A DNA stretch of 64,000 bases from Promethearchaeota archaeon (GCA_030603385.1 JAUVXW010000014.1:17402-81401); one strand, 5' to 3'; numbered from the stretch's first letter, positions 15,022 to 63,756 are shown. A program made the numbers and translations. The notes: generated from the sequence alone by a model not told the origin.

Positions 15022-15070
15022 TTAATTACTTTCCTTTTTTTATCATATTTATTTTTATTAATATTTAAAA

Positions 15071-20450: not shown

Positions 20451-20679
20451 TTGTAAATTAGGAACAGGTCCTAAATTCTCAAGTTTTAGAATTCTTTCCC
20501 CTTTTATCGTATTTTAAAGAAAAAAATTGATATTTGTGTGGAACTTAATTTTAATAAATAATTAGCATTTCTGAAATTTTTTTATTTGGTATTTATTAAT
20601 GACCTTAACTAATATCTATATTAACAACTTTATTAGAGATCTAAAAAAAATTAAAAAAATTAAAGAGAGTAGATTATCT

Positions 20680-21972: not shown

Positions 21973-21994
21973 TTATTTAAAAAGAGGGAAGTAA

Positions 21995-41760: not shown

Positions 41761-43601
41761 GAGTAAATTTTAACTTTTAATCCTTTTATTTTTTTCTTTT
41801 TTTTTACTCGGTTTTTCGAGTTAGGATAATAATCCATAACGATTTTTAATTCGTCGGCGTAATACATCTTCGGAATTAAAGTAAATATATCCCGAGTTCT
41901 GTGCTTCATAAGGAAGCATTAGTTTAAAATTGGAATTCCTGGAAGACTCAAAAGAAGAAGGCTTCATGATTAAATTGGGGCGTCCTAATTTATACGCGGT
42001 CAGCGCTTTCAGCAGTGCTAAAATATAAAGAATTGATCGAAGCTTTATCGCCGCATCCATTCCCCGCGTATTCATCCGAAAGGCATTGTAAAACGTATTA
42101 TTGTAAGAATTTCCTTGTTCAATCATCGGTCGAAAGCTGTAGATCTTGAGAAAATACTCATCCGACCATCCTTTTGGGATATAGTCTATGTTGAAGAAAA
42201 ATCCTTTTTTTAACTCTCTTACAGGATGGGTTTTCAGGTTTTTTCGCGCTCGAATAATTGGTATTAGCCCTTTAAACCGGATATTCTCCATGTTTTGCAG
42301 AGAATAGGGTTCCGAATCTGCGATGAGTACTTGCCATTCATATTCTGTTTGTGAAAAAAAATCTTCCATTGTTTCTTTAAACGCGAGGATATCGTTCCGA
42401 TTTCCGGCAAACATCTTGAAATGTATGGGAAACCAGCGATTAAAACAATGAGCATATAATATTCCTGGATCATATCCTACTCCCTTTTTTATGCCATTAT
42501 GTCGACAATATCCAGCATCAGGATCAGTATATGTTGAGTGTCCTTTCTTTTTATTATTGTTACAATTTGAACGTATGAATTGGCCATCCCAAATTAGGAT
42601 TCTTGGGATAATAATCCCACAATCAATGCATTCCTTTACCAATAGCTGAAAAAACTCAAAAAGCGCTTCAGACGGGATTCTGGTCATTACATAACTGATA
42701 TCTTGTGCTTTTGGAAAGAATTTAGGGTTATGAGTAATGCTGAATAAGGGCGGATAAGAAAGAAATCTCCCCATTCTTTCAATTCCAGAGTAATTCTTAA
42801 AGCCCAAGTTAATCCGCAGCATTTCATATGCAAGTACATCTTCAATAAACATATCCTTAAATGAAACGCCGTCATCCTCAAGAACACCTTGTAAATCCTG
42901 GAAAAAGCTAAAATCGTTAAATTCAAATAGGTTTTCAAAGAATCCACCAAATCCTTTAAGATACCGATGCATATCCCATTCCATTTTAGAGATCACTCCC
43001 ATTCCAAAATCTTCAAAACGAGGGATTTTCACGCGAGGGAACCGATATAAGTATTTATCCTTTAGTTTAGGCTCCCAATCTATGAAATCTTGAATCCTTT
43101 TCTGAGATTTAGATAATGTCCTCGTAGTAGATGGTGCTCGCTTCCCCCAAGTGGGATGTATTGGAATCCATCGAAATCTTTTTCGGGCAATTCTGTAATC
43201 TTTTGGAACGTTCATGTCGTACTGTTCAATAGATATTAACCCTATAAAATCTGTCAATTGTGTTTGGTAAATACTGGGCTTTATTTTGTATAAGATTATT
43301 ATCATGATGAGTCAATTTTATGATCTATAATAAAACATTAGATAATCGCCTATTTATTCTTTTTGGTTAATGTCTAAATCTACAATTGATCACTTATAAC
43401 TTTCATCCCTTAGATACTCTTCAATATGAATAGAATCTTAGAGAACTTAACCTTGGTGCTTTGATTTTACGCTCGCTTCTCTTGTAATGGAGGTTTCAAA
43501 TCGCACGACATAAATCTAATAGGTATAGAACTATTATAAAGGAAGTAATTAATACAAGAATAAGTAAAAAAAATAAAAAAATTAAAAGTTAAAATTTACT
43601 C
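41761..43601. mobile_element. Insertion sequence (1841 bp; IS4/IS5/IS1182-superfamily DDE)
   Basis: Perfect 21-bp terminal IR GAGTAAATTTTAACTTTTAAT (41761-41781 / 43581-43601), extendable to about 35 bp with 2 mismatches; flanked on both sides by TATT. Confidence 0.75.
41821..43305 (-). CDS. DDE transposase
   Basis: IWDGQFI, TDPDAGY, LIADS, YSFRPMIEQ (YxxRxxIE); higher GC than the flanks. Confidence 0.85.
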   Translation of the reverse strand: MIIILYKIKPSIYQTQLTDFIGLISIEQYDMNVPKDYRIARKRFRWIPIHPTWGKRAPSTTRTLSKSQKRIQDFIDWEPKLKDKYLYRFPRVKIPRFEDFGMGVISKMEWDMHRYLKGFGGFFENLFEFNDFSFFQDLQGVLEDDGVSFKDMFIEDVLAYEMLRINLGFKNYSGIERMGRFLSYPPLFSITHNPKFFPKAQDISYVMTRIPSEALFEFFQLLVKECIDCGIIIPRILIWDGQFIRSNCNNNKKKGHSTYTDPDAGYCRHNGIKKGVGYDPGILYAHCFNRWFPIHFKMFAGNRNDILAFKETMEDFFSQTEYEWQVLIADSEPYSLQNMENIRFKGLIPIIRARKNLKTHPVRELKKGFFFNIDYIPKGWSDEYFLKIYSFRPMIEQGNSYNNTFYNAFRMNTRGMDAAIKLRSILYILALLKALTAYKLGRPNLIMKPSSFESSRNSNFKLMLPYEAQNSGYIYFNSEDVLRRRIKNRYGLLS

Positions 43602-46080: not shown

Positions 46081-46354
46081 TTTTTTGAGATCACTTTTTT
46101 TTGGATATTCATTTTTATAAAATTTATGCAAGTAATATGTTTGACACTTTAATATATAAATCTTCTTTTTTCGAAATTAAAGTTTAAAATATAAGTAGAT
46201 TTAGACAATTTTATAATGATAACTTAGTAAATGACATACTTTTAAGAAAATTAAATAAACTTGCATAATCCCCAAATTAATTTGAAAAAAGTTTAATGAA
46301 TCTTTTCATTTCATTTTATAGTAATCTGTTAATATAAGATAAATTTGAATCATC

Positions 46355-47611
46355 ATGCCAAGTTCTAAAGAGTATATTGATTTAGATAATGAATATTGCG
46401 CTCATAATTACCATCCTATTCCTGTTGTGATATCAAGAGCAGAAGGGGTTTGGGTTTATGATCCAGAAGGAAAGAAGTATTTGGACTGTTTATCAGCATA
46501 TTCAAGCCAGAATACGGGGCATTGTCATCCCGAAATTATCGCAGCTTTAAAAGAACAGGCAGATATTGTTACCCTAACTTCGCGGGCATTTCATAATGAT
46601 TTAATGGGTCCATTTTTGAAAATGTTAGCCGAAGTTGTGGGCCCACACATCAACGATCCAACAAATTCGGGTATAATGAGCATTCCTATGAACACAGGAA
46701 CTGAAGCAGTTTCAACGGGATTAAAAGTAGCTAGAGCATGGGGTTATATTAAGAAAAAAATCCCAAAAAACGAAGCTAAGATAATTGTCTGCAGAAATAA
46801 TTTTCATGGAAGGACAATTACTATTGTAGGTTTTAGTTCTGATATTTCAGTTCGCTATCATGAAAATTTTGGACCATATACCCCGGGATTTATCATGATA
46901 CCGTATGGAGATGCTAAAGAATTAAAGAATACAATTTTAGATTTAGGACCTGAAAAAGTTGCTGCTTTTTTGTTTGAGCCCATTCAAGGCGAAGCGGGAG
47001 TAAATATCCCTCCAGAAGGATATTTAAAAAAGGTTAGAGAAATTTGCACAAAATATAATGTTTTGATGGTATTAGACGAGATTCAGACTGGTTTTTGTCG
47101 AACTGGAGAATTTTTTGCATGTGATCATGAGAAGGTGAAGCCAGATATGTTATTGTTGGGTAAAGCTCTAGGAGGTGGGGTTTATCCTGTTTCTGCATGT
47201 GTGGCGACTAAAGAAATAATAGGTCCTGATGTAATTAAACCTGGTACTCACGGGAGCACTTTCGGTGGAAACCCATTAGCATGTGCTGTAGCAATGAAAT
47301 CTATAGACATTCATTTACGCGAAAATCTCGCTGAACGAGCAAAAGAGATGGGTGCTTATTTTATTAAGAGACTCAAAGAGGTTGCAGAAAAAAAAACAAA
47401 AATTCCAATCAAAGACATAAGGGGAAAAGGACTACTGGTTGCTGTTGAATTTGCTGAAGATGCAAGGTATATTGTTGAAGAATTAAAAAATAATGGAATT
47501 TTAGCAAAAGATACTCATTCTACAACAATTAGGTTTGCTCCTCCATTGGTTATTACACGAGAAGAAATTGATTGGGCTATTGAAATTATTGAAAAAGTAC
47601 TCATCATGTAA
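46355..47611 (+). CDS. rocD: Ornithine--oxo-acid aminotransferase
   Basis: AHNYHPIPVV, DCLSAYS, TLTSRAF, PMNTGTEAV, EPIQGEAGV, LGKALGGG, HGSTFGGNP. Confidence 0.92.
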   Translation: MPSSKEYIDLDNEYCAHNYHPIPVVISRAEGVWVYDPEGKKYLDCLSAYSSQNTGHCHPEIIAALKEQADIVTLTSRAFHNDLMGPFLKMLAEVVGPHINDPTNSGIMSIPMNTGTEAVSTGLKVARAWGYIKKKIPKNEAKIIVCRNNFHGRTITIVGFSSDISVRYHENFGPYTPGFIMIPYGDAKELKNTILDLGPEKVAAFLFEPIQGEAGVNIPPEGYLKKVREICTKYNVLMVLDEIQTGFCRTGEFFACDHEKVKPDMLLLGKALGGGVYPVSACVATKEIIGPDVIKPGTHGSTFGGNPLACAVAMKSIDIHLRENLAERAKEMGAYFIKRLKEVAEKKTKIPIKDIRGKGLLVAVEFAEDARYIVEELKNNGILAKDTHSTTIRFAPPLVITREEIDWAIEIIEKVLIM

Positions 47612-47672: not shown

Positions 47673-48629
47673 GTGAGCAACAATAATTTAAAAAAAGGAC
47701 TTACTTTCGGATTAATTGGAGTCTTTTTAATAGGTCTGCAGCCGGTTATTTCCAACGCACGACCTTCAATTATCGATCCCTTTATTTTTGCTGCTATGAC
47801 AGCTCTAGTTGAAGCATTAATCTTCTTACCATTGTACCTCATTGAAAGAAGAGGATTAATTCAAAATAAGAATAAAGGATTTGATTTACAAATTAGAGAT
47901 TTATTGTTGAACGGGTGGAAGAAAAAGAAAAATTTATATCTCCTTATTACAATAGGCATTATCTTTAGCGTTGTTCCTGTCCTTTTATATATAGGTTTCG
48001 AAATAGCAGGAGCGATCAATAGTTCTCTTGTATTGAAAAGTGAAATAATATTCGCATTAATTTTTGGATCAATAATTCTCAAAGAAAAAAGAATCTCTAA
48101 AGTACAAATTATATTTTGTTTGGTTCTATTCTTCGGATTACTCCTTGCAATTACTCAAGGTTCATTTAATTTATTAGAATTTAACTTAGGTGTGATTATC
48201 TTAACCATAAGTGTTGCTCTATTTACATTTATTCATACGTTTACAAAAGCTGCATTTGATAGAAATGAAATATTTCCTACCCAAGTTGTTTTTGTGAGAA
48301 ACCTGATGAGTGGATTAATCTTATTTATATTATATCTATTTATTTTCCCTCTTGAAAATGTGCTGCTCATGTTTAATTTTCAAAACTTCATATTTATTTT
48401 GTTAATGGGTGTTGATTACGGTTTTAGCCTATTTCTTTGGTATAAAACCTTGACTTATATAGAAATAGGGAAGGCAAGTATCGTCAATTCTTTAACACCT
48501 ATAATATCAGCCTTTTTTGCTTGGATGATTCTGGGTGAGATATTTACTATATTCCACCTATTTGGTACTATAATCGTCATTCTTTCAATTTATATTATCG
48601 TGAGAGAGAAAGAAGTCTCAAAAATATAA
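47673..48629 (+). CDS. DMT/EamA family transporter
   Basis: About 10 TM segments in two EamA repeats (FALIFGSIILKEK; PIISAFFAWMILGE). Confidence 0.85.
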   Translation: MSNNNLKKGLTFGLIGVFLIGLQPVISNARPSIIDPFIFAAMTALVEALIFLPLYLIERRGLIQNKNKGFDLQIRDLLLNGWKKKKNLYLLITIGIIFSVVPVLLYIGFEIAGAINSSLVLKSEIIFALIFGSIILKEKRISKVQIIFCLVLFFGLLLAITQGSFNLLEFNLGVIILTISVALFTFIHTFTKAAFDRNEIFPTQVVFVRNLMSGLILFILYLFIFPLENVLLMFNFQNFIFILLMGVDYGFSLFLWYKTLTYIEIGKASIVNSLTPIISAFFAWMILGEIFTIFHLFGTIIVILSIYIIVREKEVSKI

Positions 48630-48728: not shown

Positions 48729-49250
48729 ATGAAAACAAATTTTTCTCAAGCGAAGAGTTGGATTGCTTCTTCGATTAATGATATAAAAAGAGTATTAAAT
48801 GACCTTAGTTTAAAGGATTTCTCCCGTGTTGCCTTTACAAGTCAATTCGCTGTAGAAAAACTAAATAAAGCGATTTTGAGTTTAATTGGAATAAAAATTG
48901 AAAAAACACATAATCCATCAGAAATATTAAAGGAAGTTTTTATAGATGAGGAAACTTTAAGTATTGATGAAAAAGCAAGAGAATGGATAGAAATTATTAT
49001 CCGAAATTCTGAGTTCTTTGAAAGGCAAGGTACAAAAACACGATATGGGATAATTGAGGGTGATAAAATAAGATTTCCCGAGGAAATATATAGTTCCTTT
49101 GAAGATATTCATAATTTTCTCGAAAATCTTAAAACTATAATTAATATGTATATAAAGCTTATGAAGGAAACTTTCAGACTCTCTAAGAAGGAATTTGAAT
49201 CAATAGAAGTGTTAAAAGAATTAGAAGGTGAAATAAGTAAATGGATATAA
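48729..49250 (+). CDS. HEPN domain protein
   Basis: AFTSQFAVEKLNKA, KTHNP, TRYG; overlaps the MNT gene. Confidence 0.8.
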   Translation: MKTNFSQAKSWIASSINDIKRVLNDLSLKDFSRVAFTSQFAVEKLNKAILSLIGIKIEKTHNPSEILKEVFIDEETLSIDEKAREWIEIIIRNSEFFERQGTKTRYGIIEGDKIRFPEEIYSSFEDIHNFLENLKTIINMYIKLMKETFRLSKKEFESIEVLKELEGEISKWI

Positions 49251-49729
49251 ATCTCTCTTTTATAAAAAATGAATATTTTTTAAGAAAGTTAGAAAATTGT
49301 ATTAATCAATTATTTCGCATAAAGAAAGAAATACAAGGAATAATATTATTTGGTTCTTTAGCTAGGGACAAAGCGATTTATTCTGCTAAAAAAATAAGTG
49401 ATATTGATATAATTGTTATTTTTAAGGATAATCAACTCCCAAAAAACCATAATGAAAGAATTAATCTTCAAATTAAACTAATGGATTTAAAAGAATTAGG
49501 TTTTGATTCTTTATGGATGACAGAATCCGAATTTAAAAACTTAGTTCAAATTAAAGCTGACATGATTTTAGACGTTTTAAATGAGGGAATTGTCTTATAT
49601 GATCCATATAGCTTAATAAATGAACAAAAAGGCAAATTATTTAAAGAATTAGAAGAAAAAGGTGTAATCAAACGTGAACATTATTGGATATGGCCTTTAA
49701 AAAATCTTGGAGATGAAATTGAGTGGTAG
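49241..49729 (+). CDS. MNT nucleotidyltransferase
   Basis: ILFGSLARD...SDIDII, EGIVLYD. Confidence 0.85.
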   Translation: MDINLSFIKNEYFLRKLENCINQLFRIKKEIQGIILFGSLARDKAIYSAKKISDIDIIVIFKDNQLPKNHNERINLQIKLMDLKELGFDSLWMTESEFKNLVQIKADMILDVLNEGIVLYDPYSLINEQKGKLFKELEEKGVIKREHYWIWPLKNLGDEIEW

Positions 49730-50754: not shown

Positions 50755-51669
50755 TTAATTCTGTTTATATATCTCTGTTCCAGCTTTTCCTTCTAATGCT
50801 TCTATTATTTTATCAATAGAAGTTATTATTGCTCTTTCACCACCTGATTCCAAGAAATTTATTACGGCTTGAATTTTTGGCCCCATGCTTCCTGCTGGAA
50901 ATTGTCCTTCTTCTAAATACTTTTTTGCTTCAGAGATTGATAATCTATCTAATTCTTGTTGGTTTGGGTTTCCATAATTAAGAGAAACTCTTTCAACATC
51001 AGTAGCGATCAATAAAATATCAGCATTAATTTGTTCAGCCAATTTAGCACTAGCCAAATCTTTATCAATGACAGCTTCAACACCATACAGTCTTTTTTTC
51101 TCTTTTATTACAGGAATACCCCCACCCCCACAAGCAATTACTATCCAACTACCTAATTCCATTAATTTGTTTATCTCACGCCACTGATAGATTTTTATAG
51201 GTTTTGGAGAAGGTACAACACGCCGATAACCTTTTGCAGTTTTTACATATCCTGGTTTTGGAACATCATAAGCAGGGCCAATTGGTTTAGTGGGATTAAA
51301 AAAGGCGGGATCCTCAGCATCTACCTTGACATACGTAAGAACAGTAATAAAGAGTTTTTCTTCATCAAGACCAATTTTCATTAATTCTTCATCAAGAGTA
51401 GATTCAATCATAAAACCAATCTGACCTTGCGTTTCAGCAACTAATATTTGTAAGGGCCTTTTCGAAACTGCTTTAGTCGCTTCTTGTTGTAGTAATAAGT
51501 TACCAACTTGTGGTCCATTACCATGAGTTATGATAATATTATATTCCTTTGCTAATTCTGCAATTTGACTAATTGGTACTTGTAAATTTCGAAATTGCTC
51601 TTCAGTTGTACCTTCATCACCAAATTTGATTAAAGCATTACCGCCTAGTGCAACAATCAATGTTTTCAA
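50755..51669 (-). CDS. arcC: Carbamate kinase
   Basis: VALGGNAL, THGNGPQVG, PTKPIGP, YRRVVPSP, GGGGIPV, EAVIDKD, GSMGPK. Confidence 0.95.
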   Translation of the reverse strand: MKTLIVALGGNALIKFGDEGTTEEQFRNLQVPISQIAELAKEYNIIITHGNGPQVGNLLLQQEATKAVSKRPLQILVAETQGQIGFMIESTLDEELMKIGLDEEKLFITVLTYVKVDAEDPAFFNPTKPIGPAYDVPKPGYVKTAKGYRRVVPSPKPIKIYQWREINKLMELGSWIVIACGGGGIPVIKEKKRLYGVEAVIDKDLASAKLAEQINADILLIATDVERVSLNYGNPNQQELDRLSISEAKKYLEEGQFPAGSMGPKIQAVINFLESGGERAIITSIDKIIEALEGKAGTEIYKQN

Positions 51670-51734
51670 TTAATAAACCTCTAGGTAAAATTACATAAAA
51701 GTAAATGAAAAATAGATAATATTTAGCTTATTAT

Positions 51735-52667
51735 TTAAAATTTTTCTTGTAAAAAGAGCATAATTGCTTTTTGAATGTGTAAGCGATTTTCTGCTTGATC
51801 AAACACAATTGATTGAGGACCATCAATAACTTCAGCTGTTTGTTCATATTCTCTCATGGCAGGTAAACAATTCATAAATGCCGCATCTGGCCTCGCAGCT
51901 TTCATTATCGATGATGTAACTTGATAAGGCATAAAGGCTTTTTTCCGTTCTTCTTCTTGTTCTTGTGGAATCCCATAGCTCATCCAGCTATCAGTATAAA
52001 TTATATCAGTGTCTCTAGCAGCTTCAAATGCATCATGAACTACTTTTACCTCAGCACCACTACTTTTTGAAAGTTCTAACACTTCATCTATGACCAATTG
52101 TTCAGGTGAATAATCAGGATTTTTAGGACAGGCAACATCCATCCTCAAACCAAACATAGCACACATCCTCATTAAATCATATGTTACATTATTATTAGCA
52201 TCTCCAAAATAGGATAATTTAAAGTTATCAAGTCTTCCCTTTTTTTCGTTGATTGTTTGAAAATCTCCAAGAACCTGGCATGGATGCGCAAAATCGTCAA
52301 GCATGTTAATTACTGGTACATCAGCATATTTAGCGAGATCCCAAATGTCTTGCCTTTTGAAGACACGAGCAGCGATTATATTGACGAACCTCGATGCGAC
52401 TTTTGCAGTATCGCTAATGTTTTCTTTTTTGCCCAATGGAGAATCTTTAATTGAATAGAATATAGCGTGTCCTCCTAATTGTTGCATGCCTGTTTCAAAA
52501 GAAATTCGAGTTCTTAAGGATGGTTTTTCAAATAGCATCAAAAGCGTTTCTCCTTCTAAGGCAGAGTTATATTTTTTAGGATTTTTCTTAATCTCAATAG
52601 ATTTATTAATAACCTTCTCGCACTCTTCTTTTGAAAAATCTGAGACTTTTAATAAATGTCGAACCAT
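51735..52667 (-). CDS. arcB: Ornithine carbamoyltransferase (catabolic, Giardia/eukaryote-clade-like)
   Basis: FEKPSLRTR, HPCQ, NNVTYDLMR, YTDSWMSY, FMNCLPA, QAENRLH; likely start ATG 52667. Confidence 0.9.
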   Translation of the reverse strand: MVRHLLKVSDFSKEECEKVINKSIEIKKNPKKYNSALEGETLLMLFEKPSLRTRISFETGMQQLGGHAIFYSIKDSPLGKKENISDTAKVASRFVNIIAARVFKRQDIWDLAKYADVPVINMLDDFAHPCQVLGDFQTINEKKGRLDNFKLSYFGDANNNVTYDLMRMCAMFGLRMDVACPKNPDYSPEQLVIDEVLELSKSSGAEVKVVHDAFEAARDTDIIYTDSWMSYGIPQEQEEERKKAFMPYQVTSSIMKAARPDAAFMNCLPAMREYEQTAEVIDGPQSIVFDQAENRLHIQKAIMLFLQEKF

Positions 52668-52750
52668 TTTTAACAATAAGTAATATTTATATACACTTGA
52701 ATATAAAAAAGAAAGATTAGATTTAAGTCAAGATATATGCTTATTTATTT

Positions 52751-53917
52751 TTATTTTAATTCTTCTTCTATTCCAAAATCTCTTTCATATGAAAGGGTGT
52801 CTATGATTTCATGATCCTTTGAATTTAATTTTTCTGTTAATATACGACTAAGAAGTTCTCCTAATCCTGGTCCTAACATGAACCCTTGACCACACATTCC
52901 AACCGCATTAATATATCCGTCTATTTCATCAACTTTACCTATGATTGGATTGCCATCTGGTGTCATCGGATATAACCCACGCCATGTTCTCCTTACTTTA
53001 ATATTTCTTAAGCGAGGTAAGAGTTGTATCATTCTTTTTGAAATTTGAGGTAAGAAAGAGCTAGTTTCTCTTCTATCAGTACCTACCATATTAGGGTCTG
53101 GAGTCAGACAAAATAATATTTTACCTTCTTTGTTTTGATAAAAATAGTAGTTTTTTGAGTTTCCAAATTTGGAGTCTATGCATGGTCTAATATCAACAAC
53201 CATTGTGGTAAAGAAATTCTTTACCGGTTCAGTGATTCCTGCTTCATGAGAGTCTGGTTCAACTGGAACATCTAAACCAACCATTTTTCCAATTTCTTTT
53301 GCTTGAGCTCCAGCTGTATTAATAACATATTTAGTTTTATATTTTCCTTTTGTTGTTTTAATACCAATAACATTGTCTTCTTTAGTTAGAATACCTGTTA
53401 CTTTTTCATTAAATCTATACTCTGCTTCTAATTCTTCAGAATTTCTAAAAATAGAATGTAAAGCTAATAACGGAGAAGCATTTCCATCTTCAGGACTATA
53501 AGTACCTCCCATTAATCCCTCATCATTGATTCCAGGGACTAATTCTTTGATTTTTTCCGCATCGACAAAATCGATATTTAAACCATAACTTTTCTGGAGT
53601 TTAACGGTATCCTTGAGCAGCTTTTCATCTTCTTCGGAAAAAGCTAAAAAAGTATATCCTCCTTGGGTCCACCAAATGTCGTCTCCATATTTTTCTTCCC
53701 AACTAGAAAAAATTTCTATTGATCTTTGACAAAGAAGAGATTTTCCGATATGAGAATGAGTACTCCTTATACCCCCAATTGCGTGTTTATTATCTGCTTG
53801 TGCAACTGAAGGTAATGAATCAATAACTAAAGTTTTAAGTCCATCTTTCACTGTTGCTAGGGCCGTTGGGACCCCAACACTGCCAGCGCCAATGATAATT
53901 ACATCATATTCGACCAA
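52751..53917 (-). CDS. FAD-dependent dehydrogenase beta subunit (dye-linked proline dehydrogenase/sarcosine oxidase family)
   Basis: IIGAGSVG, GGIR, DGNASP, RTWRGLYPMTPDGNPIIG, GMCGQGFMLGP. Confidence 0.8.
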   Translation of the reverse strand: MVEYDVIIIGAGSVGVPTALATVKDGLKTLVIDSLPSVAQADNKHAIGGIRSTHSHIGKSLLCQRSIEIFSSWEEKYGDDIWWTQGGYTFLAFSEEDEKLLKDTVKLQKSYGLNIDFVDAEKIKELVPGINDEGLMGGTYSPEDGNASPLLALHSIFRNSEELEAEYRFNEKVTGILTKEDNVIGIKTTKGKYKTKYVINTAGAQAKEIGKMVGLDVPVEPDSHEAGITEPVKNFFTTMVVDIRPCIDSKFGNSKNYYFYQNKEGKILFCLTPDPNMVGTDRRETSSFLPQISKRMIQLLPRLRNIKVRRTWRGLYPMTPDGNPIIGKVDEIDGYINAVGMCGQGFMLGPGLGELLSRILTEKLNSKDHEIIDTLSYERDFGIEEELK

Positions 53918-53919
53918 TG

Positions 53920-56004
53920 TTATTTTCTCTCCTTTTTTTCTTTAGCTAAAGCAAAAATACCCATTGGTACTTCCATGAATAATGGACGTTTTGTCCCTGA
54001 AGTAATATCGTCAATCGAAATACCTTCCTCTTGAAATACTCTATTGATTAAAGGAGTGCAAGTTTTTCCACCACACGCACCCATACCAATTTTAGTTAGA
54101 GCTTTTAGTTCGTTAAAATCTTTTACACCCGAGCGAATCCATTTTCGAATCTCTCCAACTGACACACGTTCACATCTGCAGATAATTATATCATCATCTG
54201 TAAAATCTCTTTGATAGATTTCAGTAGGCTCGGAATATGTGCTTTCAACCAGTTTTATAGCAACAGCTTGTTTTGCTATTTCTGATGGTAGTTTAACTGT
54301 TATTAATTGAGTTTTAGGAAATTCTTTTAGGATCCTTGTTCTATGAACTTTAAATTCGCCTAACTCTTGATCATTGTTCACAACAATAATTTTATGATCT
54401 TTTTCTAGCTTATTAGCTGTGAGTTCGAGAGGAAATGTTATAAATGGATTATTTTTATCCTTTCTGTAATCTTTTAATACAACTGCCAACCCAGGACAAA
54501 CAGCAACACATTTACCACATCCTATACATTCTTGTTCATCTTTAAAATATGGTAGCTGCGTAATTAAATCGTCAATTGTTTCAATCTGTTCATTTGGGCA
54601 GACTGTAGTACAAGGGTTACAAGGAATTTCTTGGTTACAGTAGAAGACTGGAAAAATCCCTTCCTCTTTATGTGAAAAATCTATATCAACTGGGGGTGGG
54701 GGTTTTGCTTTCATAATTTCATAAAATTTCTTAAGTGTTTTTAAGTCCTCTTCTGTTTTAATTCCAATTTCTTTTAATATCTTTAAAGCTTCAATTTTAC
54801 CCGTGAATATTGCTGCAGAAGCTTCCGCTATTTCTTGAGCATCCCCGGCAACCCAAACTTTTAATCCATATTCCATTGCTTTCTGGTAAAACTCATTAAC
54901 TGGGTTTAAACCAACTGCAATCAATATGGTATCGCAGGTAAATGTTTTCTCATTTCCAGAAATGGCTTTAAATTTCTCATCTATCTGTGCTATCGTTATA
55001 GATTCAACTTTATTATATCCATTTGCAGAAATTATTGTATGGTTGGTAAAAATAGGAACACCTAATCGTCTTAACTTATCTTCATGGACCTTATAGCCAC
55101 CACATTGGGGCATTGCTTCAATTAACCCAACCACCTCAATTCCCGCTTGAATAGCATGATAACCTGCAATTAAACCAACATTTCCTCCTCCAACAATAAA
55201 AGTTTTTTCTGCAGCTCTAATTAAATCACGATTTACTAACGTTTGAAATGCACCAGCACCATATACTCCTGGCAGGGTATTACCAGGAAAAATTAACATC
55301 TTTTCACGTGCCCCAGTGGCAACAAGAAGATATTTAGGTTTGACTAATACATATTCTTTATTATTTTTGAGAATTCCAACATATCCATCACTAAAAACTG
55401 CTAAGCACACACTATTTAGCCAAACTTGAACATTTTTGAGTGAGAGAACTGATTGCCCGAGGATTTTTGCTATATCAATCCCACGTTTCCCGGCATATAC
55501 ATCCTCTTGAGAACCAAAAAACTTGTGAGTTTGAAGGACCAACTTACCTCCAAATCTATCTTTATCATCAACCAATAATACATTAAGTTTTGATTCTCCT
55601 AAGATTTTAGTTGCTGAAAGCCCTGCGGGTCCAGCACCAATTACTAGAACCTCAAGATTAATAATCTCAGAATCCCCTACACTTACAGGTTTATCTTCGA
55701 CAGGTAATTCTGGCAACCCATTACAACTTTTTATAATCATATCTTCAATAAGAGGAGTCATACATGCCTTAACGGGTATACCATTCGCAATTACATTGCA
55801 TTGAGAACATTGACCATTAGCACAAAAAATTCCTTGAGGACTTGAATCCTTGACATGATGTCCAAAAACCTTAATTTTATTGAGAAAAAGCGCAGAGGAT
55901 ATAACCATCCCCTCATATCCAGATAATTTTTTACCATCAAAACTAAAGGTGATCTTTTTTCTTTCAGGTATTTCCAATATGGGATGAGATGTTATATTCT
56001 CCAT
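53920..56004 (-). CDS. Fused proline-dehydrogenase-type alpha subunit: [2Fe-2S] + FAD/NAD + 2x[4Fe-4S] + BFD-like [2Fe-2S]
   Basis: GIFCANGQCSQC..ACMT; VIGAGPAG; KLVLQTHKFFG; ATGARE; CNQEIPCNPCTTVCP and CIGCGKCVAVCPG; ICRCERV...GMGACGGKTC. Confidence 0.8.
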   Translation of the reverse strand: MENITSHPILEIPERKKITFSFDGKKLSGYEGMVISSALFLNKIKVFGHHVKDSSPQGIFCANGQCSQCNVIANGIPVKACMTPLIEDMIIKSCNGLPELPVEDKPVSVGDSEIINLEVLVIGAGPAGLSATKILGESKLNVLLVDDKDRFGGKLVLQTHKFFGSQEDVYAGKRGIDIAKILGQSVLSLKNVQVWLNSVCLAVFSDGYVGILKNNKEYVLVKPKYLLVATGAREKMLIFPGNTLPGVYGAGAFQTLVNRDLIRAAEKTFIVGGGNVGLIAGYHAIQAGIEVVGLIEAMPQCGGYKVHEDKLRRLGVPIFTNHTIISANGYNKVESITIAQIDEKFKAISGNEKTFTCDTILIAVGLNPVNEFYQKAMEYGLKVWVAGDAQEIAEASAAIFTGKIEALKILKEIGIKTEEDLKTLKKFYEIMKAKPPPPVDIDFSHKEEGIFPVFYCNQEIPCNPCTTVCPNEQIETIDDLITQLPYFKDEQECIGCGKCVAVCPGLAVVLKDYRKDKNNPFITFPLELTANKLEKDHKIIVVNNDQELGEFKVHRTRILKEFPKTQLITVKLPSEIAKQAVAIKLVESTYSEPTEIYQRDFTDDDIIICRCERVSVGEIRKWIRSGVKDFNELKALTKIGMGACGGKTCTPLINRVFQEEGISIDDITSGTKRPLFMEVPMGIFALAKEKKERK

Positions 56005-56040
56005 TTGGATTCTTTCTAAATTATTAAATAATATATTAAA

Positions 56041-58224
56041 TTACTGGTGTGGTTTTATTACAGATAACACATCATCAAAGTCTATGCTTAATTCTTTTAT
56101 CAATTCTATTGTTGGACAGCCGTTCTGATTCCAACCACGCTCTATATAAACAGCTTCTTGGAGTTTTGAATATTGTTTTTCTCGATGTTGTCGAAGCTTC
56201 TTTATTTTTTCGTCAGTAGATTTACCTTCAATATCGAATCCTAATTCTTCAAGCTGTCCATCATATCTATCAACTCGACTCTCATATTCTAAAGGAGTTA
56301 CTGGTCCAACTGCCCTGTAAGGTAAATTTGAATCATGTTCTCGAAGCCCTTTACCCAATCTAATGTTAAAAATCCTCTGAAAGTTATATACTCTTTCAGA
56401 CATTTTGAGGAGATCATCCGTCGTCGATTGACGCCCCGTTACTGCTGAATAATATTCAGTGTACCATTTCACGTGATCAGGAATTTTCGCGCGAACTAAC
56501 TCTCCTGTTTTAGGATCTTTAATTGGGTATTCTCGTTGGCTCAATGGTTGTATATCGTTCCAGGGGAGCTTACAGAGTCCATTTAGCGAAAACCAGGTCC
56601 TCCAATAAGGGAAGAAACGCAGAGCTTTAGCTTTATCTTCGAAAGTTGGAATTGAATTTCTAATCACATCATCAAAAATAAGCCAAGCTTCGTCATGTTG
56701 AGGCCCCTTATTTGTCAGTCCATATCCCCCTTGCTGGGCTAATGATTCTTTGGTCACATATTCGGAAAACTCTAATCCTTTATGTTCCATTCCGATATCT
56801 TGTAAAAATTTTGGATCTGCTCCATATTTCTCAGCAAAAATCTTTTTCATTTCTTTAATTCCTTGACCAACAACTAATCCAAACCCTTCTCCTTTAGCCA
56901 TTTGATGTATCAATTCCATAGCTGCTTTAGCATTCCCAAAACTAAGATCCAGTCCCCCGGTAATTTCTTTATTTAGTATACCTTCTTCATAACATTCCAT
57001 TACGAAAGCAATTCCGGTACCTAAACTTATAGTATCGAGCCCATATGTATCTGCGTAAAAATTAACTTCTAATACCCATTTAGGATCCCATACACCCCAA
57101 TTAGAACCACAACCAGCAATTGTTTCATATTCAGGTCCATCTACAATTACTTTCTGGCCCTTAAAAGGACCTGTTAAGACTTGATGGCCTTCAGAATAGT
57201 GAGAGCAACTAACCGTGCATCCAATCCAACAACCATCAGCTCCTTCCTTTCCAGAATAGATGGTTCTCATGATTTCTCGACTATAGGGAATATCCTTTCC
57301 GCTTATTTCTTTATGCATCCCAAAACGAAAGTTTTCAGTTGGCAGAAGATCAGTCACATTCATAATATCTGGGAGATGCCCGGTCCCAACTTTACGCATT
57401 TCGTTTTGTATTGGATCAAGTTCAATAATTTCTTGACTATGCATTTTTCCAATTTTTCTAGCCCCTTCTAAATCTGCTGGATTATTTGAATTGATTGTTA
57501 CTTTTGGAGAAAGGCATACTAAAGCTTTGAGATTCTTGTCTTTAAATACAGTTCCAATTCCACCCCGTCCTGCTTGTTTAGATGATGCCCAATTACGACC
57601 ACGGACAAACCATGAAAAATTTAACATCCCCCATTTAGTATGTCGTGCCGCAGGTCCAGAACTTACTACTGAAACACGTTGTTTTTCAGCATCATCTTTA
57701 GCATATTTTTCTGTTAATTGTTGCGTAAGTTCGTGAGAATATTCAGAAAGTCCTTCAGAAACTTCTACTTCTTTTATTTGAATTAATCCTTCTATACCAT
57801 CAATATAAATAATTACTTCATTTTTCGCTTTTCCTTGTATTTCTAATGCGTCAAATCCCGAAAATTTAAGGTATGGTCCGAAATAACCTCCAACATTAGA
57901 ATCTATAATAATTCCTGTTAGAGGCGATATCGAGGTAACAATTGATTTTCCAGAACCGGGGTAAAAAATACTCCCCCCCAATGGACCAGAGGAAATACAA
58001 ATCTCGTTTTCAAGATCATTCCATTTGATAATGCGATTCTTTGGAAGTGAGTTCCACATTAACCATAAATCAAAACCTTTTCCTCCAATGAACTTCTCTT
58101 TCATTTCATTTGAAACAGGTTTTATAGCAATTTCATTGTTAGTTAAATTGATATACAAAGTTCGGTTTACGTAACCTTTTTGAACCTCTCGAAGTTCGTA
58201 ATTTTTTTCAGCTATAATCATCAA
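56041..58224 (-). CDS. Tungsten-type aldehyde:ferredoxin oxidoreductase (long, divergent subfamily)
   Basis: FIGGKG, SPLTG..DSNVGG, KQAGRGGIG...KNLKA, CWIGCTVSC, DGPEYET, YGLDTIS, KGLE, RGW. Confidence 0.88.
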   Translation of the reverse strand: MMIIAEKNYELREVQKGYVNRTLYINLTNNEIAIKPVSNEMKEKFIGGKGFDLWLMWNSLPKNRIIKWNDLENEICISSGPLGGSIFYPGSGKSIVTSISPLTGIIIDSNVGGYFGPYLKFSGFDALEIQGKAKNEVIIYIDGIEGLIQIKEVEVSEGLSEYSHELTQQLTEKYAKDDAEKQRVSVVSSGPAARHTKWGMLNFSWFVRGRNWASSKQAGRGGIGTVFKDKNLKALVCLSPKVTINSNNPADLEGARKIGKMHSQEIIELDPIQNEMRKVGTGHLPDIMNVTDLLPTENFRFGMHKEISGKDIPYSREIMRTIYSGKEGADGCWIGCTVSCSHYSEGHQVLTGPFKGQKVIVDGPEYETIAGCGSNWGVWDPKWVLEVNFYADTYGLDTISLGTGIAFVMECYEEGILNKEITGGLDLSFGNAKAAMELIHQMAKGEGFGLVVGQGIKEMKKIFAEKYGADPKFLQDIGMEHKGLEFSEYVTKESLAQQGGYGLTNKGPQHDEAWLIFDDVIRNSIPTFEDKAKALRFFPYWRTWFSLNGLCKLPWNDIQPLSQREYPIKDPKTGELVRAKIPDHVKWYTEYYSAVTGRQSTTDDLLKMSERVYNFQRIFNIRLGKGLREHDSNLPYRAVGPVTPLEYESRVDRYDGQLEELGFDIEGKSTDEKIKKLRQHREKQYSKLQEAVYIERGWNQNGCPTIELIKELSIDFDDVLSVIKPHQ

Positions 58225-58317
58225 ATTTCACTTCAATAAGAGTTGCTACTATGATATTTAAAAATTAAAAATATAAAATTATAATGATTAAACTGGGTTC
58301 TATTTTAAATTAATCCC

Positions 58318-59658
58318 TTATTTTAAATGTTGTTTAATAAATTTATCAAGCACTTCTTCAATAGTTGGACTTTTTATTGCTTCTATATCGTAGTTTACTC
58401 TTACTATTGGTTTGTTACTTTTAATTAATTTCCCAAGATCTATTGGACTGCCATCAATAATAACTTCCGCTTCTGCGTTATTCAGTGTTTGTTCCATATC
58501 AGCAATTTGTTGATCATTGTAACCCATTGCTGGAATAATTTCAGTAATTTGGGGAAATTCTTCAAACAGCGTTTTCATTGTGCCTGATAAATAAGGTCTG
58601 GGATCTACTATTATAGCTCCACTATTTTTAGCAGCGACATAACCTGCCCCATATGACATATTCCCATGGGTCAACGTCGGACCATCTTCAACTACTATTA
58701 CTTTCTTTCCATTCAAATTTTGATTGCCTTCTACAGTTACAACAGAATTTGTATAGATTCTTATTGCATTTGGATTTAATTTATCTAAATTTTCCTCCAC
58801 AATTTTAACATCTTCTGTCTTCGCACTATTCATTTTATTGATAACAAAAGCATCAGCATATCGGGCATTTACCTCACCAGGATGATATTTAAGTTCATGG
58901 CCAGGTCTTAAAGGATCAACAACTATGAATAATAAATCAGTGATATAAAAAGAAATTTCATTATTCCCCCCATCAAAAATTATAACATCTGCTTCTTTTT
59001 CTGCTTCCCGAATTATTTTTTCATAATCGACACCAGAATAGATAACAAGCCCTTGCTCGATATAGGGTTCATACTCTTCTCGTTCTTCAATTGTACATTC
59101 GTATTTATCTAAATCTTCATATTTTTCAAAGCGCATGACATTTTGCTTAACTAAATCTCCATACGGCATCGGTTCTCTAATAGCTACTACCTTATACCCT
59201 TTACTCTTTAAGTATCTATAAGTTGCTCGAGAAACTTGACTTTTTCCACATCCAGTTCTCACAGCACATATTGCAACAACCGGTTTATTAGCTTTTATTT
59301 GAGTGAATCTTCCTGATATTAAGCGATAATTAGCACCAGCAGCAAGAGCTCTTGAGGCTTTGTGCATTACTTCTTCATGAGGAAGATCCGAATAAGCAAA
59401 CACCACTTCATCAACATCATTTTTTTTAATTAAATCTTCAAGTAACTCTTCTGAAACCATTGGAATTCCATCTGGATATAATTTGCCAGCTAGTTCTGCT
59501 GGATATTTTCTTTCAGCATTTCCAGTAGTACCAACGTTTTGTTCTCCAGCGATTGTAAAAGCAACTACATCATATTCTTTATTATCCCGAAATACTGTAT
59601 TAAATAAGTGGAAGTCCATTCCAAGCGCTCCGATAATAACAACCTTCTTTTTCTTCAT
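58318..59658 (-). CDS. arcE: Arginine synthetase ArcE (cDPG-synthase-like P-loop family)
   Basis: YPAELAG.LYP.GIP, FAYSD, AVRTGCGKSQ, PMPYGDL, CTIEEREEYEP, DGGNN, YHPGE.N, VEDGPTLTHG, PAMGY; same strand and operon as OTC and carbamate kinase. Confidence 0.8.
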   Translation of the reverse strand: MKKKKVVIIGALGMDFHLFNTVFRDNKEYDVVAFTIAGEQNVGTTGNAERKYPAELAGKLYPDGIPMVSEELLEDLIKKNDVDEVVFAYSDLPHEEVMHKASRALAAGANYRLISGRFTQIKANKPVVAICAVRTGCGKSQVSRATYRYLKSKGYKVVAIREPMPYGDLVKQNVMRFEKYEDLDKYECTIEEREEYEPYIEQGLVIYSGVDYEKIIREAEKEADVIIFDGGNNEISFYITDLLFIVVDPLRPGHELKYHPGEVNARYADAFVINKMNSAKTEDVKIVEENLDKLNPNAIRIYTNSVVTVEGNQNLNGKKVIVVEDGPTLTHGNMSYGAGYVAAKNSGAIIVDPRPYLSGTMKTLFEEFPQITEIIPAMGYNDQQIADMEQTLNNAEAEVIIDGSPIDLGKLIKSNKPIVRVNYDIEAIKSPTIEEVLDKFIKQHLK

Positions 59659-60850: not shown

Positions 60851-61000
60851 GTCTTATTTAAAGTAAAAATACTATCTTAAGTATGTATTCTTTATGATTA
60901 TTCTTTCAATCCCACCCCGAATCCATAAAAATGTCACCAAGAGTGGAAATTTAGGCTGGAATAGACAAGCAAAAAAATTTGGATTATTAATTTATTGGTA

Positions 61001-61058
61001 TCCTTTCCAAGAGCGCCAATTATAATTAATTTCTTTTTCTTAATAGATACAAACCATT
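61001..61058 (-). pseudogene. Degenerate second copy of the arcE 5' end
   Basis: 44/58 nt ungapped identity to 59615-59672; reads IKKKKLIIIGALGKD versus MKKKKVVIIGALGMD. Confidence 0.75.
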
Positions 61059-61126
61059 CTAATAGTATTCGGTTTTTCTTAAAATATAAGATAGCTATAA
61101 ATATGTGTATGTATACATATATACAT

Positions 61127-61366
61127 ATGACTTCAAAAAATATTAGTATTACCGAGGATGTTTATAACAAATTACTTAAAATTAAACGCAACAATGAAAG
61201 CTTTTCAGAGCTATTCTTGAGGCTCTTAAAGATACAAAAAAGTACACTTGAAAAATCTTTTGGAGCATGGAATCTTTCAGAAGCTGAAAAAAAAGAGATT
61301 TGGGCAAGTTTATCAATGCGCAATGCAAGAAATTGGAATAAATCAAATTTAGAGGATTTTAAATGA
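61127..61366 (+). CDS. vapB: VapB antitoxin (DUF217-like)
   Basis: MTSKNISITEDVYNKLLKIKRNNESFSELFLRLL; TATGTATACATA palindrome at 61108-61119; the ORF-track extension to 60995 is spurious. Confidence 0.85.
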   Translation: MTSKNISITEDVYNKLLKIKRNNESFSELFLRLLKIQKSTLEKSFGAWNLSEAEKKEIWASLSMRNARNWNKSNLEDFK

Positions 61367-61770
61367 TTATTCTCGATACTTCTGCCTGCATCGATTATTT
61401 AAGTGGAAATAAAGAAATCAAAAAAGTAATTGAAGATCTAGAAGATCTGATTCACATTACTTCTATAACTGTCTATGAAATGAATATAGGGTTTGAAAGG
61501 ACTAAACGCAAAATTTCTGAGAATAGATTTAAGCAGCTTTACAAACCTTGGTTAGAATTTATAAGTAGTATGGAGATCTTTCCTTTAGGATATAAAGAAG
61601 CTGAAAGGGCGGCCGAGATTTGTGATATTTTAGAGGCCCAAGGGCAAGGAATAGATGATAACGACATTCTTATTGCAGGTATCATGTTAACAAATGGGAT
61701 TAAGGAATTAATAACTAGAAATGTAAGTCATTTTAAAAGAATTGAAGGTATAGATATCATAAAATACTAG
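61363..61770 (+). CDS. vapC: PIN-domain VapC toxin
   Basis: MIILDTS, TVYE, DNDILIAG, ITRNVSHFKRI; ATGA overlap with vapB. Confidence 0.9.
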   Translation: MIILDTSACIDYLSGNKEIKKVIEDLEDLIHITSITVYEMNIGFERTKRKISENRFKQLYKPWLEFISSMEIFPLGYKEAERAAEICDILEAQGQGIDDNDILIAGIMLTNGIKELITRNVSHFKRIEGIDIIKY

Positions 61771-61954: not shown

Positions 61955-63091
61955 TTAGATAGATAATAATTGATAAGTTTTACCCGTTTTAAGAAAAGCT
62001 TTGAAGTTTTCTGGTCTGCAATTGGGAGGTACTTCACAACCAGATGCTAAAATATGCCCTCCATCAACTCCAAGTTTGTCAATAAGTTTTTTAACGTAAT
62101 CTTCGACTTGTTTTTGGCTTCCAATAGAAAATAAAGATCCACTAACATCACTCATAAGGCATAAATGATCTTTAAGGATTTCTTTAGCTCTGAATATATC
62201 TGTTAGTCCATCAAGGTCAATTATACATGAAGCTCTTGGTAGTTCCTTAAAATAAGGAATATTTAAATCCCAACATTGATCAAGATGAAGCCAAGATATT
62301 ATTCCTTCATCGTATAAACTTTCTACTATTCTTTTAGTATATGGCCACCAGAATCGTTCAAAAATTTTCAAGGGATAAATAGCCCCTTCTGCTCTCTCTT
62401 CAGGGATAAAAACCACATTGCCACCATTATATTTGCATTGTGCTGTAACACTTTTTATAAATTCATCCGTCATTGTATCGAGTGCGGCATCAACCAATTC
62501 AGGTCTATAATAGAGATCTTGTGTGAATTTGAGCATTGACCGATTTAACGAAAGAGTGAAAAAAGGATGGACTCGATTGGCTCCTGCCCTTAAACCAATT
62601 TTTCTTTTTACAATCCATTCTTCACCAGCTTTCAACCCTAATTCAAAGAATTGCTTTCTAGCCTTATCTACATCCTCAGGTGTCCAATCACTGATGCGAT
62701 AGATATACTCATTTGAGACAAATTTAGACCAACCAATATCTGTAACAGTTTTATAATCTTCTACTTTCATCCATTCTCCTTCATCAAACTGCCCAAAATA
62801 ATTGTCGGGCAATTCTTGTCCCGGTGCTTTAAATTTAAATCCTCCTAGTAAATATCCCGGTTTAACAAGGGGATATGTTGTGTATGCATCCCATCCTCCA
62901 AACTCATCAAAAAATTTAAGCATTACCTCAAGGCCTTTAATTGGTTCTTTATGCATTTCCGCTGTAGATAATCCATAATATGCTGCAGCTAGGTCCATCC
63001 CTACAAGAGGACTAATTGGCACCCGGTCTGGTTCTTCCAAATTTATTGCGGCATTTATTCTCTCTTCTGAACTCATATATTCTTCTTTCAT
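61955..63091 (-). CDS. Uroporphyrinogen decarboxylase-like MtaA/CmuA-family methylcorrinoid methyltransferase
   Basis: ERINAAINLEEPDRVP, DLYYRPE, FERFWWPY, HLD, ILASGCEVP..C.PEN. Confidence 0.75.
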   Translation of the reverse strand: MKEEYMSSEERINAAINLEEPDRVPISPLVGMDLAAAYYGLSTAEMHKEPIKGLEVMLKFFDEFGGWDAYTTYPLVKPGYLLGGFKFKAPGQELPDNYFGQFDEGEWMKVEDYKTVTDIGWSKFVSNEYIYRISDWTPEDVDKARKQFFELGLKAGEEWIVKRKIGLRAGANRVHPFFTLSLNRSMLKFTQDLYYRPELVDAALDTMTDEFIKSVTAQCKYNGGNVVFIPEERAEGAIYPLKIFERFWWPYTKRIVESLYDEGIISWLHLDQCWDLNIPYFKELPRASCIIDLDGLTDIFRAKEILKDHLCLMSDVSGSLFSIGSQKQVEDYVKKLIDKLGVDGGHILASGCEVPPNCRPENFKAFLKTGKTYQLLSI

Positions 63092-63093
63092 TT

Positions 63094-63756
63094 TTAAATT
63101 CCTCCCCGTGCTCTAATTACAACTCTTGCTTTAATTGTCTCCAAACAATATTGAACACCTTCCATGGCATCTATCGTTTGAAAATCTGCTCCAATATAAT
63201 CTTTCACCAGTGAGGTTGTGATTCCTCCACCCACCAATATCTTCAATTTATCGCGGAATCCAGCTTCTTTCAATCTATCAATTATCTCTTTCATTGGATC
63301 AAAGGTTATTGTAAGAAGAGATGAAAATCCTAGAAAATCGGGTTGAATTTCTTTTACTTTCTCAACTACAATATCTGGATTAACATCTACACCTAAATCA
63401 TAAACCTCAAAACCTTCTAATTTAAGAAGAGTAGCGAGGATATTTTTGCCTAAATCATGAATATCTCCCTGGATTGTAGCAAGTATTATTTTACCTTTAA
63501 TATTTCCCTCTATTTTTTTTTCCCCTAAATAAGGTTCGATAAGTTCCATAGCTTCTTTAAAAAGATCACCTGAGAGCATTAACTCCGCAAGAAAATATTC
63601 TTTTTTTTTATATCTCTCGCCTATCATTTCCATACCTTGCTTACATTCTTCGAATATCTTCATTGGATCTTCACTCTGATTAAGGCGTTCCTTTACTTCA
63701 GATAAAACTTTTTCACGTTCAAGCTCAATTAGATTTATTGTTAAATCTGATGACAT
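63094..63756 (-). CDS. Corrinoid (B12-binding) methyltransferase protein
   Basis: GMEMIGERY..EYFLAELM cap domain; GDIHDLGKN; DLGVDV; SSLLT; VGGG. Confidence 0.9.
   Translation of the reverse strand: MSSDLTINLIELEREKVLSEVKERLNQSEDPMKIFEECKQGMEMIGERYKKKEYFLAELMLSGDLFKEAMELIEPYLGEKKIEGNIKGKIILATIQGDIHDLGKNILATLLKLEGFEVYDLGVDVNPDIVVEKVKEIQPDFLGFSSLLTITFDPMKEIIDRLKEAGFRDKLKILVGGGITTSLVKDYIGADFQTIDAMEGVQYCLETIKARVVIRARGGI

Follow-up and report, generated by a model that had tools for sequence, protein, structure and literature searches.

The DNA analyzed here is a 64,000-nucleotide stretch of a Loki-type Asgard (Promethearchaeota) genome (GCA_030603385.1, JAUVXW010000014.1:17402-81401), referred to below as the window. 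It corresponds to C25:17402-81401 in a 3.9 Mb assembly of 58 contigs that is 94% complete. Positions 50755-59658 are filled by six minus-strand open reading frames (ORFs) that encode a candidate arginine synthetase (arcE-like), a divergent member of the aldehyde:ferredoxin oxidoreductase (AOR) family, the two subunits of a proline dehydrogenase-like flavoprotein (PDH alpha and PDH beta), ornithine carbamoyltransferase (OTC) and carbamate kinase (CK). The intergenic gaps, from the arcE-like gene to the CK gene, are 93, 36, 2, 74 and 65 bp, and a gene for ornithine--oxo-acid aminotransferase (OAT) converges on the operon at a distance of 3143 bp from the CK gene. This confirmed the layout given in the initial annotation, i.e., six co-oriented genes with gaps of 2-93 bp and OAT about 3 kb away. 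The initial annotation had also proposed that the embedded AOR replaces NAD-dependent 1-pyrroline-5-carboxylate (P5C) dehydrogenase. We lean, by a modest measure, towards this assignment, in which the 727-aa AOR would act as a glutamate-5-semialdehyde (GSA):ferredoxin oxidoreductase within an arginine/proline-to-glutamate route. The family-level identities of the genes, their conserved synteny, the pathway hole in the genome, the clade-wide linkage to P5C enzymes and the intact active site are established. The genes are as follows:

58318-59658, minus strand: arcE-like gene, arginine synthetase candidate (446 aa); no model in Pfam and NCBIfam scans; P-loop GCGKS at residues 136-140
56041-58224, minus strand: divergent AOR-family tungsten-type oxidoreductase (727 aa), candidate glutamate-5-semialdehyde:ferredoxin oxidoreductase; AFOR_N and AFOR_C domains
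53920-56004, minus strand: PDH alpha (694 aa), SoxA/HcnB/PH1363-like FAD protein fused to four Fe-S cluster sites; Fer2_4, Pyr_redox_2, 2x[4Fe-4S] Fer4 and BFD [2Fe-2S]
52751-53917, minus strand: PDH beta (388 aa), DAO-family flavoprotein; DAO domain, 203 bits
51735-52676, minus strand: ornithine carbamoyltransferase, OTC (313 aa); TIGR00658, 358 bits (cut-off 281); NF001986 above cut-off
50755-51669, minus strand: carbamate kinase, CK (304 aa); TIGR00746, 373 bits (cut-off 358)
46355-47611, plus strand: ornithine--oxo-acid aminotransferase, OAT/RocD; TIGR01885, 529 bits (cut-off 378); convergent on the operon

Metatranscriptome contigs from one study matched parts of the OTC, PDH beta, PDH alpha, AOR and arcE genes at 92-99%. 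None of these contigs spanned a gene junction and DNA carry-over is possible, so that they are no proof of transcription or co-transcription.

Identity of the arginine and proline genes

OTC, CK and OAT all exceeded curated equivalog cut-offs (TIGR00658, TIGR00746 and TIGR01885, respectively). The arcE-like, OTC and CK genes are each present as a single copy in the genome, and a search for OTC paralogues yielded one weak carbamoyltransferase as the sole further match. No real arginine deiminase was found in the genome, the only match being a fragmentary one to the ADI fold (24 bits). The 446-aa protein showed a weak match to cyclic 2,3-diphosphoglycerate synthetase (cDPG-synthetase) and fell together with 'putative GTPase' clusters from Promethearchaeota, Planctomycetota and Chloroflexota. 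Homologues of TK2200, the ArcE of Thermococcus kodakarensis, have been described as being without family assignment, annotated as 'putative GTPase' and faintly similar to cyclic 2,3-diphosphoglycerate synthetase, as occurring in Lokiarchaeota, Planctomycetota and Chloroflexi, and as lying next to arcB/arcC (PMC11032458). As the features of the 446-aa protein and its synteny with OTC and CK match this account, it is a good candidate for ArcE on indirect evidence. A clean arcE-OTC-CK-OAT operon, headed by an arcE-like gene, is present in genera g2 and g9.

The PDH alpha and PDH beta genes, 2 bp apart, combine a DAO-type beta subunit with a PH1363-related alpha subunit, the composition of heteromeric archaeal PDH1-type enzymes. 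The best solved relative of PDH beta was the catalytic beta subunit of Pyrococcus horikoshii PDH1 (1Y56_B, 181 bits), and the next chain scored 87 bits. The PDB matches of PDH alpha were 2GAG_A and 1Y56_A; its first 400 residues resemble the alpha subunits of PDH1 and of heterotetrameric sarcosine oxidase, and 16 cysteines in four cluster motifs as well as two dinucleotide folds are invariant in 14 orthologues. We infer that L-proline is the substrate of the pair. The flavoprotein could instead oxidize another cyclic or secondary amine (pipecolate, D-proline, sarcosine or an opine), and the AOR would then take the matching aldehyde, e.g., 2-aminoadipate semialdehyde or formaldehyde. Such a role would agree with the matches of PDH beta to sarcosine, dimethylglycine and glycine oxidases and of PDH alpha to SoxA, with the inclusion of lysine cyclodeaminases in the OCD family, and with the oxidation of formaldehyde by the AOR-family enzyme FOR in vitro. 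However, the other oxidases score at most 87 bits against PDH beta, compared to 181 bits for the P. horikoshii subunit, and the companions are all C5 enzymes, namely OAT, which exceeds its equivalog cut-off, the products of the arc genes, and P5C reductase. We therefore consider a substrate other than proline unlikely.

The 727-aa oxidoreductase

Domain searches placed the 727-aa protein in the AOR/WOR family of tungsten or molybdenum bis-pterin enzymes (PF02730, 158 bits; PF01314, 311 bits). It scored 185 bits to Pyrococcus furiosus AOR (1AOR) and 169 bits to FOR (1B25), and its weakest PDB match was BamB. The [4Fe-4S] ligands C332, C336, C340 and C551 are invariant in 26 clade members, and the first cysteine motif reads CxxxCxxxC, one residue off the CxxCxxxC spacing. 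The pterin motifs GLDT and GLC are present, and the equivalents of Glu313, Tyr312, His448, Tyr427 and Thr243 of P. furiosus AOR are kept (PEYE for the Glu-Tyr pair, H510, Y489 and T281). With its cluster ligands, its two pterin motifs and its second-shell Glu, His, Tyr and Thr all retained, the protein is probably an active aldehyde oxidoreductase.

On sequence grounds, the 727-aa AOR is placed outside the AOR, FOR, GAPOR, WOR4, WOR5 and BamB groups that have structures. Close kinship with the FOR subfamily was not borne out, as the score to FOR was 169 bits versus 185 bits to AOR and the protein belongs to a separate clade with a long branch from the genome's own AOR paralogues. The genome holds nine further AOR-family genes (ten in total), whose identity to the 727-aa AOR is just 24-28%.

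The window also contains a second AOR-family gene, of canonical length (626 aa), directly after an iron-type alcohol dehydrogenase gene (20599-23875, plus strand). This pair is separate from the arginine operon.

No conventional consumer of glutamate-5-semialdehyde found

The 94%-complete genome gave one PF00171 match only, and neither P5C dehydrogenase nor ProA was found in it; this sole aldehyde dehydrogenase (ALDH)-superfamily gene scores as a CoA-acylating methylmalonate-semialdehyde dehydrogenase (MMSDH). A P5C dehydrogenase domain of the PutA type would also appear as a PF00171 match, of which only the one was seen; TIGR01238 was not searched separately. P5C reductase (ProC) and argininosuccinate synthase were not found in the genome either, and a single OCD-family gene is present. 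OAT and the PDH-like enzyme would both make P5C/GSA and its conventional consumer was not found, which leaves the AOR as the only candidate consumer within the operon. It is this missing P5C dehydrogenase whose place the AOR would fill. The initial annotation had noted that arginine deiminase and P5C dehydrogenase are lacking from the window, and neither was found elsewhere in the 94%-complete genome.

Among 41 relatives, the P5C dehydrogenase model NF002852 was above its cut-off in none and TIGR01236 in one (G030). An anticorrelation between the AOR and rocA/putA, which the initial annotation had named as a check, was not demonstrated, and the comparison is uninformative, since P5C dehydrogenase is missing from 40 of the 41 relatives regardless of the AOR and G030 has both.

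Elsewhere in the window (12465-17286), a gene for a GABA-type aminotransferase (TIGR00700, above cut-off) lies beside genes for an M20 peptidase and the alpha subunit of an ADP-forming acyl-CoA synthetase. Succinate-semialdehyde dehydrogenase was not found in the genome, so that a further semialdehyde is without an obvious ALDH.

Conservation in Asgard archaea

The gene order arcE-AOR-PDH alpha-PDH beta-OTC-CK, together with OAT, was found in ∼50 species-level genomes through the AOR, and also in loci found independently through PDH beta. The cluster is present in genera g1, g12, g14, g18, g22 and g23 of the family of the window genome and in g5 of a second Lokiarchaeial family, with AOR identities down to 67%. 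The synteny is thus not unique to the window genome and was seen in at least seven genera. In the 41 relatives, the AOR and PDH beta were both present in 26 and both missing in 10, while three had only the AOR and two only PDH beta. The two PDH-only cases are fragmented assemblies. The 41 genomes are kin, so that these counts overstate independence. In 30 Asgard PDH alpha/beta loci, inside and outside the family, no ALDH or P5C dehydrogenase had taken the AOR's place beside PDH. The sole exception is congener G245, whose operon holds, in addition to the AOR, an extra ALDH-superfamily gene between OTC and CK (L243, G245:C9, ∼4905-6400). The encoded protein is 73% identical to the succinic-semialdehyde-dehydrogenase-like ALDH of G006, and its position suggests that an aldehyde step belongs to the operon.

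Relatives in bacteria

A search of 1.84 billion representatives returned few long relatives (700-740 aa) with 37-58% identity, followed by a drop to generic AORs. When a bacterial clade member was used as the query, 7933 cluster representatives were obtained at E<=1e-100, with source names of Desulfobacterales/Deltaproteobacteria. A pattern scan of metagenome contigs resulted in 80 loci with a GC content of 0.32-0.70, and their AORs form the sister clade of the Asgard group in the tree. They were assigned to bacteria because rpoZ, gmk, dxs and xseB are found on one contig and yggT, divIVA and pilT on others, and because the named relatives are Desulfobacterales/Deltaproteobacteria, including chromosomes of 6-7 Mb.

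Loci with an AOR <64% identical to the window AOR were classed as bacterial-type. Orthologues of PDH alpha/beta, 49-57% identical, were the commonest neighbors in these loci, with PDH at most 6 kb from the AOR in 23 loci. Many of these loci have the order PDHa>PDHb>AOR, unlike the Loki operon. The second commonest neighbor was P5C reductase (counted over all groups, 22 loci have it at most 6 kb from the AOR, including 6 Asgard loci), followed in falling frequency by OCD-family homologues, class-III aminotransferases and a GntR regulator. In a 6.1-Mb genome, a GntR gene and an amino-acid ABC importer precede the AOR, which is divergent from PDH alpha/beta. On an unrelated contig, a 45%-identical clade member is located 22 bp downstream of, and co-directional with, a gene for an OAT-like aminotransferase whose best families are ornithine--oxo-acid transaminases. 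The initial annotation had looked to synteny of the AOR clade with genes of this kind, and synteny with PDH alpha/beta, OAT-like aminotransferases, ProC and OCD homologues was indeed seen in distant bacteria. P5C/GSA is the proposed substrate because every such partner makes or uses it, and this convergence over two domains and differing gene orders is the main support for the proposal.

For the distant clade representatives P0124, P0125, P0129 and P0131 the contigs were too short to inform. P0122 adjoins a polyferredoxin gene and another AOR, and amino-acid genes are lacking there. On Logan contigs (L127-L130), the gene of a 52%-identical clade member overlaps a 153-aa polyferredoxin gene by 4 bases. 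After it come an ACP-phosphodiesterase-like gene, MoaD/ThiS-like genes and a further, short AOR, with a radical-SAM/SPASM gene near; this arrangement is AorA/AorB-like and includes no amino-acid genes.

Proposed pathway

In the proposed route, ArcE would convert arginine, ADP and Pi to citrulline, ATP and NH3, as established for the T. kodakarensis enzyme, and OTC and CK would then give ornithine and a second ATP. OAT would convert ornithine to GSA, which is in equilibrium with P5C, and the PDH alpha/beta flavoprotein would supply the same P5C/GSA from L-proline. The 727-aa AOR would oxidize GSA to glutamate at its tungsten (or molybdenum) pterin center, and its [4Fe-4S] cluster would relay two electrons either to ferredoxin or into PDH alpha's Fe-S chain. 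Going by the established reactions of ArcE, OTC, CK and OAT, one arginine and one 2-oxoglutarate would yield two glutamate, 2 ATP, CO2, 2 NH3 and two reduced ferredoxins. All substrates in this route, and the electron acceptor, are inferred from sequence.

PDH alpha/beta and the AOR might further form a single four-electron, oxygen-free proline-to-glutamate system, a tungsten-dependent analogue of PutA, in which electrons from GSA (∼-580 mV) would enter the Fe-S chain of PDH alpha, join those from proline (∼-120 mV), and reduce NAD(P)+ or drive H2 formation. We regard this extension as speculative and improbable. If true, it would overcome the thermodynamic difficulty that syntrophic anaerobes face in oxidizing proline and would explain a linkage that is kept from Desulfobacterales to Asgard archaea. 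A complex prediction for the AOR and the C-terminal Fe-S part of PDH alpha (residues 425-694) had a score of 0.00, which offers no support and no verdict, and it was not used as evidence.

Evidence weighed against the proposal, and the direction of the reaction

Several observations weigh against the AOR as the GSA-oxidizing enzyme. One relative, G030, holds the cluster together with a canonical P5C dehydrogenase (TIGR01236, 747 bits); in many congeners, GSA could be oxidized by one or two ALDHs whose specificity is unassigned, and the operon ALDH of G245 may represent an NAD(P)-dependent alternative in the genus. The assignment of proline to PDH beta hangs on its match to one characterized enzyme (181 bits). 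The PDH alpha/beta genes of g2 and g9 lie apart from the arc-OAT operon, and the nearest AOR is in a neighboring subclade of the FastTree tree. G042 and G043 have an AOR orthologue without PDH beta or an above-cut-off OAT; both have ProC, and G043 also ProA. AOR orthologues in other Asgard lineages (66-75% identity) sit among housekeeping genes, not amino-acid genes. A MoaD/ThiS-like gene or an EamA transporter recurs beside them, and six loci have P5C reductase at a distance of ∼2 kb. In 35 such loci, no common functional partner was found beyond ProC (the same six loci) and the MoaD/ThiS-like gene. Among the bacterial-type loci with at least 3 kb visible on each side, PDH or ProC is within 6 kb of the AOR in only 7 of 23.

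These scattered contexts would also suit an AOR that scavenges a broad range of aldehydes, or whose role has nothing to do with its neighbors, and that drifted into the operon in one Lokiarchaeial lineage. The ten AOR-family genes of the genome, the other Asgard orthologues that adjoin only housekeeping genes and a MoaD/ThiS-like gene, and the majority of bacterial loci without a P5C gene within 6 kb are all compatible with such a role. However, two sister clades that differ in gene order both show the linkage to PDH alpha/beta, the PDH, ProC, OCD and OAT-like neighbors converge on one metabolite, and a neighborhood of 12 kb is much too short for chance to bring a single-copy gene pair together in 23 loci. 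Of the explanations considered here, we hold a scavenger or unrelated role to be the least probable, and very unlikely.

The AOR could also run in reverse, with low-potential ferredoxin reducing glutamate to GSA as an ATP-free substitute for ProB/ProA. GSA would then feed OAT, OTC, CK and ArcE for ornithine and arginine, and ProC/OCD for proline. Under such a scheme, the lack of ProA, ProC and argininosuccinate synthase from the genome and its single OTC would be accommodated, and P5C reductase does stand beside the AOR, without PDH, in many bacterial and six Asgard loci. G042 likewise combines ProC and the AOR with no ProA, PDH or OAT. Two reports on T. kodakarensis describe ArcE and CK as reversible and able to act biosynthetically (PMC11032458; PMC13260591), and AORs reduce acids in acetogens (PMC12096430). 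Against this, the tightest partner, PDH alpha/beta, is flavin-dependent and oxidative and has no synthetic role, and G043 has ProA and ProC beside the AOR. A catabolic pattern is also seen in bacteria, where the AOR can share a transcription unit with a GntR regulator and an amino-acid ABC importer. Acid reduction at ∼-580 mV, as given by established values for aldehyde/acid couples, would moreover be strongly uphill. Since its closest partner is a flavin-dependent proline dehydrogenase and the bacterial loci include catabolic regulators and importers, we favor the oxidative direction (GSA to glutamate, with reduction of ferredoxin) for the window operon, for which reversal appears rather unlikely. 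Where ProC is the AOR's only partner, the reverse reaction nevertheless has to be taken seriously, and it is also conceivable in the window genome because the classical proline and arginine synthesis genes were not found there.

As to the AOR as a replacement for P5C dehydrogenase, the initial annotation is partly supported, by the synteny and by the missing P5C dehydrogenase, ProA and ProC but not by an anticorrelation; activity, proline specificity and direction are predictions.

Novelty and significance

The initial annotation had called the activity undescribed. This holds for the searchable literature, where no paper was found to connect an aldehyde:ferredoxin oxidoreductase with proline dehydrogenase, P5C or glutamate semialdehyde, and the arginine synthetase papers describe no step beyond ornithine or proline (PMC11032458; PMC13260591). 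It needs qualification in one respect, as P. furiosus FOR binds glutarate and has long been proposed to oxidize a C5 semialdehyde, glutaric semi- or dialdehyde, as its true substrate (PMC12096430). The newness is therefore that of a proposed specificity within a known enzyme family and of a new branch of a known pathway. Roy et al., in 1999, reportedly linked the proposed substrate of FOR to basic amino-acid catabolism.

If true, the proposal would provide the first physiological substrate for a very large uncharacterized tungsten-type clade, whose sequence clusters number in the thousands and come from sulfate-reducing bacteria as well as Asgard archaea, and would add a ferredoxin-reducing step to the fermentation of arginine, ornithine and proline. 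The newly discovered arginine synthetase pathway would be extended to glutamate, with 2 ATP and low-potential electrons per arginine. It would also bear on the source of the reducing equivalents for H2 or formate transfer in Loki-type Asgard archaea, which among syntrophic amino-acid fermenters are the closest to eukaryotes.

Genes around the operon

In most relatives OAT directly adjoins CK. In the window, the two are separated by an EamA transporter gene, a HEPN/nucleotidyltransferase pair and an LLM-class oxidoreductase gene. The HEPN and minimal nucleotidyltransferase pair is at 48729-49729 (plus strand), and this separation of OAT from CK is peculiar to the window genome. The transporter gene is as follows:

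47673-48629, plus strand: EamA-family transporter, possible amino-acid carrier of uncertain membership in the system; EamA domains

EamA genes 43-47% identical to it flank the AOR orthologue in six other Asgard loci (L082, L085, L088, L089, L092 and L095). A VapB/VapC (PIN) toxin-antitoxin pair lies upstream of arcE (60995-61770, plus strand), and the same pair is found between OTC and CK in several congeners (L027, L029, L064, L067 and others), which indicates a mobile toxin-antitoxin module that shifts within the operon. An 832-aa protein of the penicillin-amidase family (Ntn hydrolase; 43633-46131, minus strand) is encoded by a conserved neighbor of OAT in several congeners. The flanks of the region hold a URO-D-like methyltransferase accompanied by a corrinoid protein that binds B12, as well as a DDE transposase (61955-63756, minus strand; 41821-43305, minus strand).

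Comparison with known systems

The 727-aa AOR shares with P. furiosus FOR (1B25/1B4N) and AOR (1AOR) the two-domain architecture, the [4Fe-4S] ligands, the motifs for pterin binding and the Glu, His, Tyr and Thr of the second shell, and like FOR it has Trp where P. furiosus AOR has Tyr452. It differs from both in being ∼110-120 residues longer, with several insertions, and in its location in an amino-acid operon. P. horikoshii PDH1 (alpha4beta4, PH1363/PH1364, PDB 1Y56) resembles the window pair in its beta subunit, the best solved relative of PDH beta, and in PH1363, which the N-terminal half of PDH alpha matches. Unlike PDH1 alpha, PDH alpha of the window has a [2Fe-2S] domain at its N-terminus as well as 2x[4Fe-4S] ferredoxin and BFD [2Fe-2S] domains, and the pair is genetically coupled to an AOR, a coupling not reported for the Thermococcales enzymes in the searchable literature.

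The proposed net reaction of the AOR, GSA to glutamate, and its pairing with proline dehydrogenase resemble those of PutA/RocA, the NAD-dependent P5C dehydrogenases of the ALDH superfamily. The likeness would be one of functional analogy only, as the AOR has an unrelated fold and cofactor, a predicted low-potential acceptor instead of NAD+, and an expected sensitivity to oxygen. The arginine synthetase pathway of T. kodakarensis (ArcE TK2200, OTC, CK and OAT TK2101) has its counterpart here in the arcE-like, OTC, CK and OAT genes, again without arginine deiminase. In T. kodakarensis, ornithine feeds proline synthesis and a GSA-oxidizing step is not described, whereas the Asgard operon has the PDH pair and the AOR placed between arcE and OTC.

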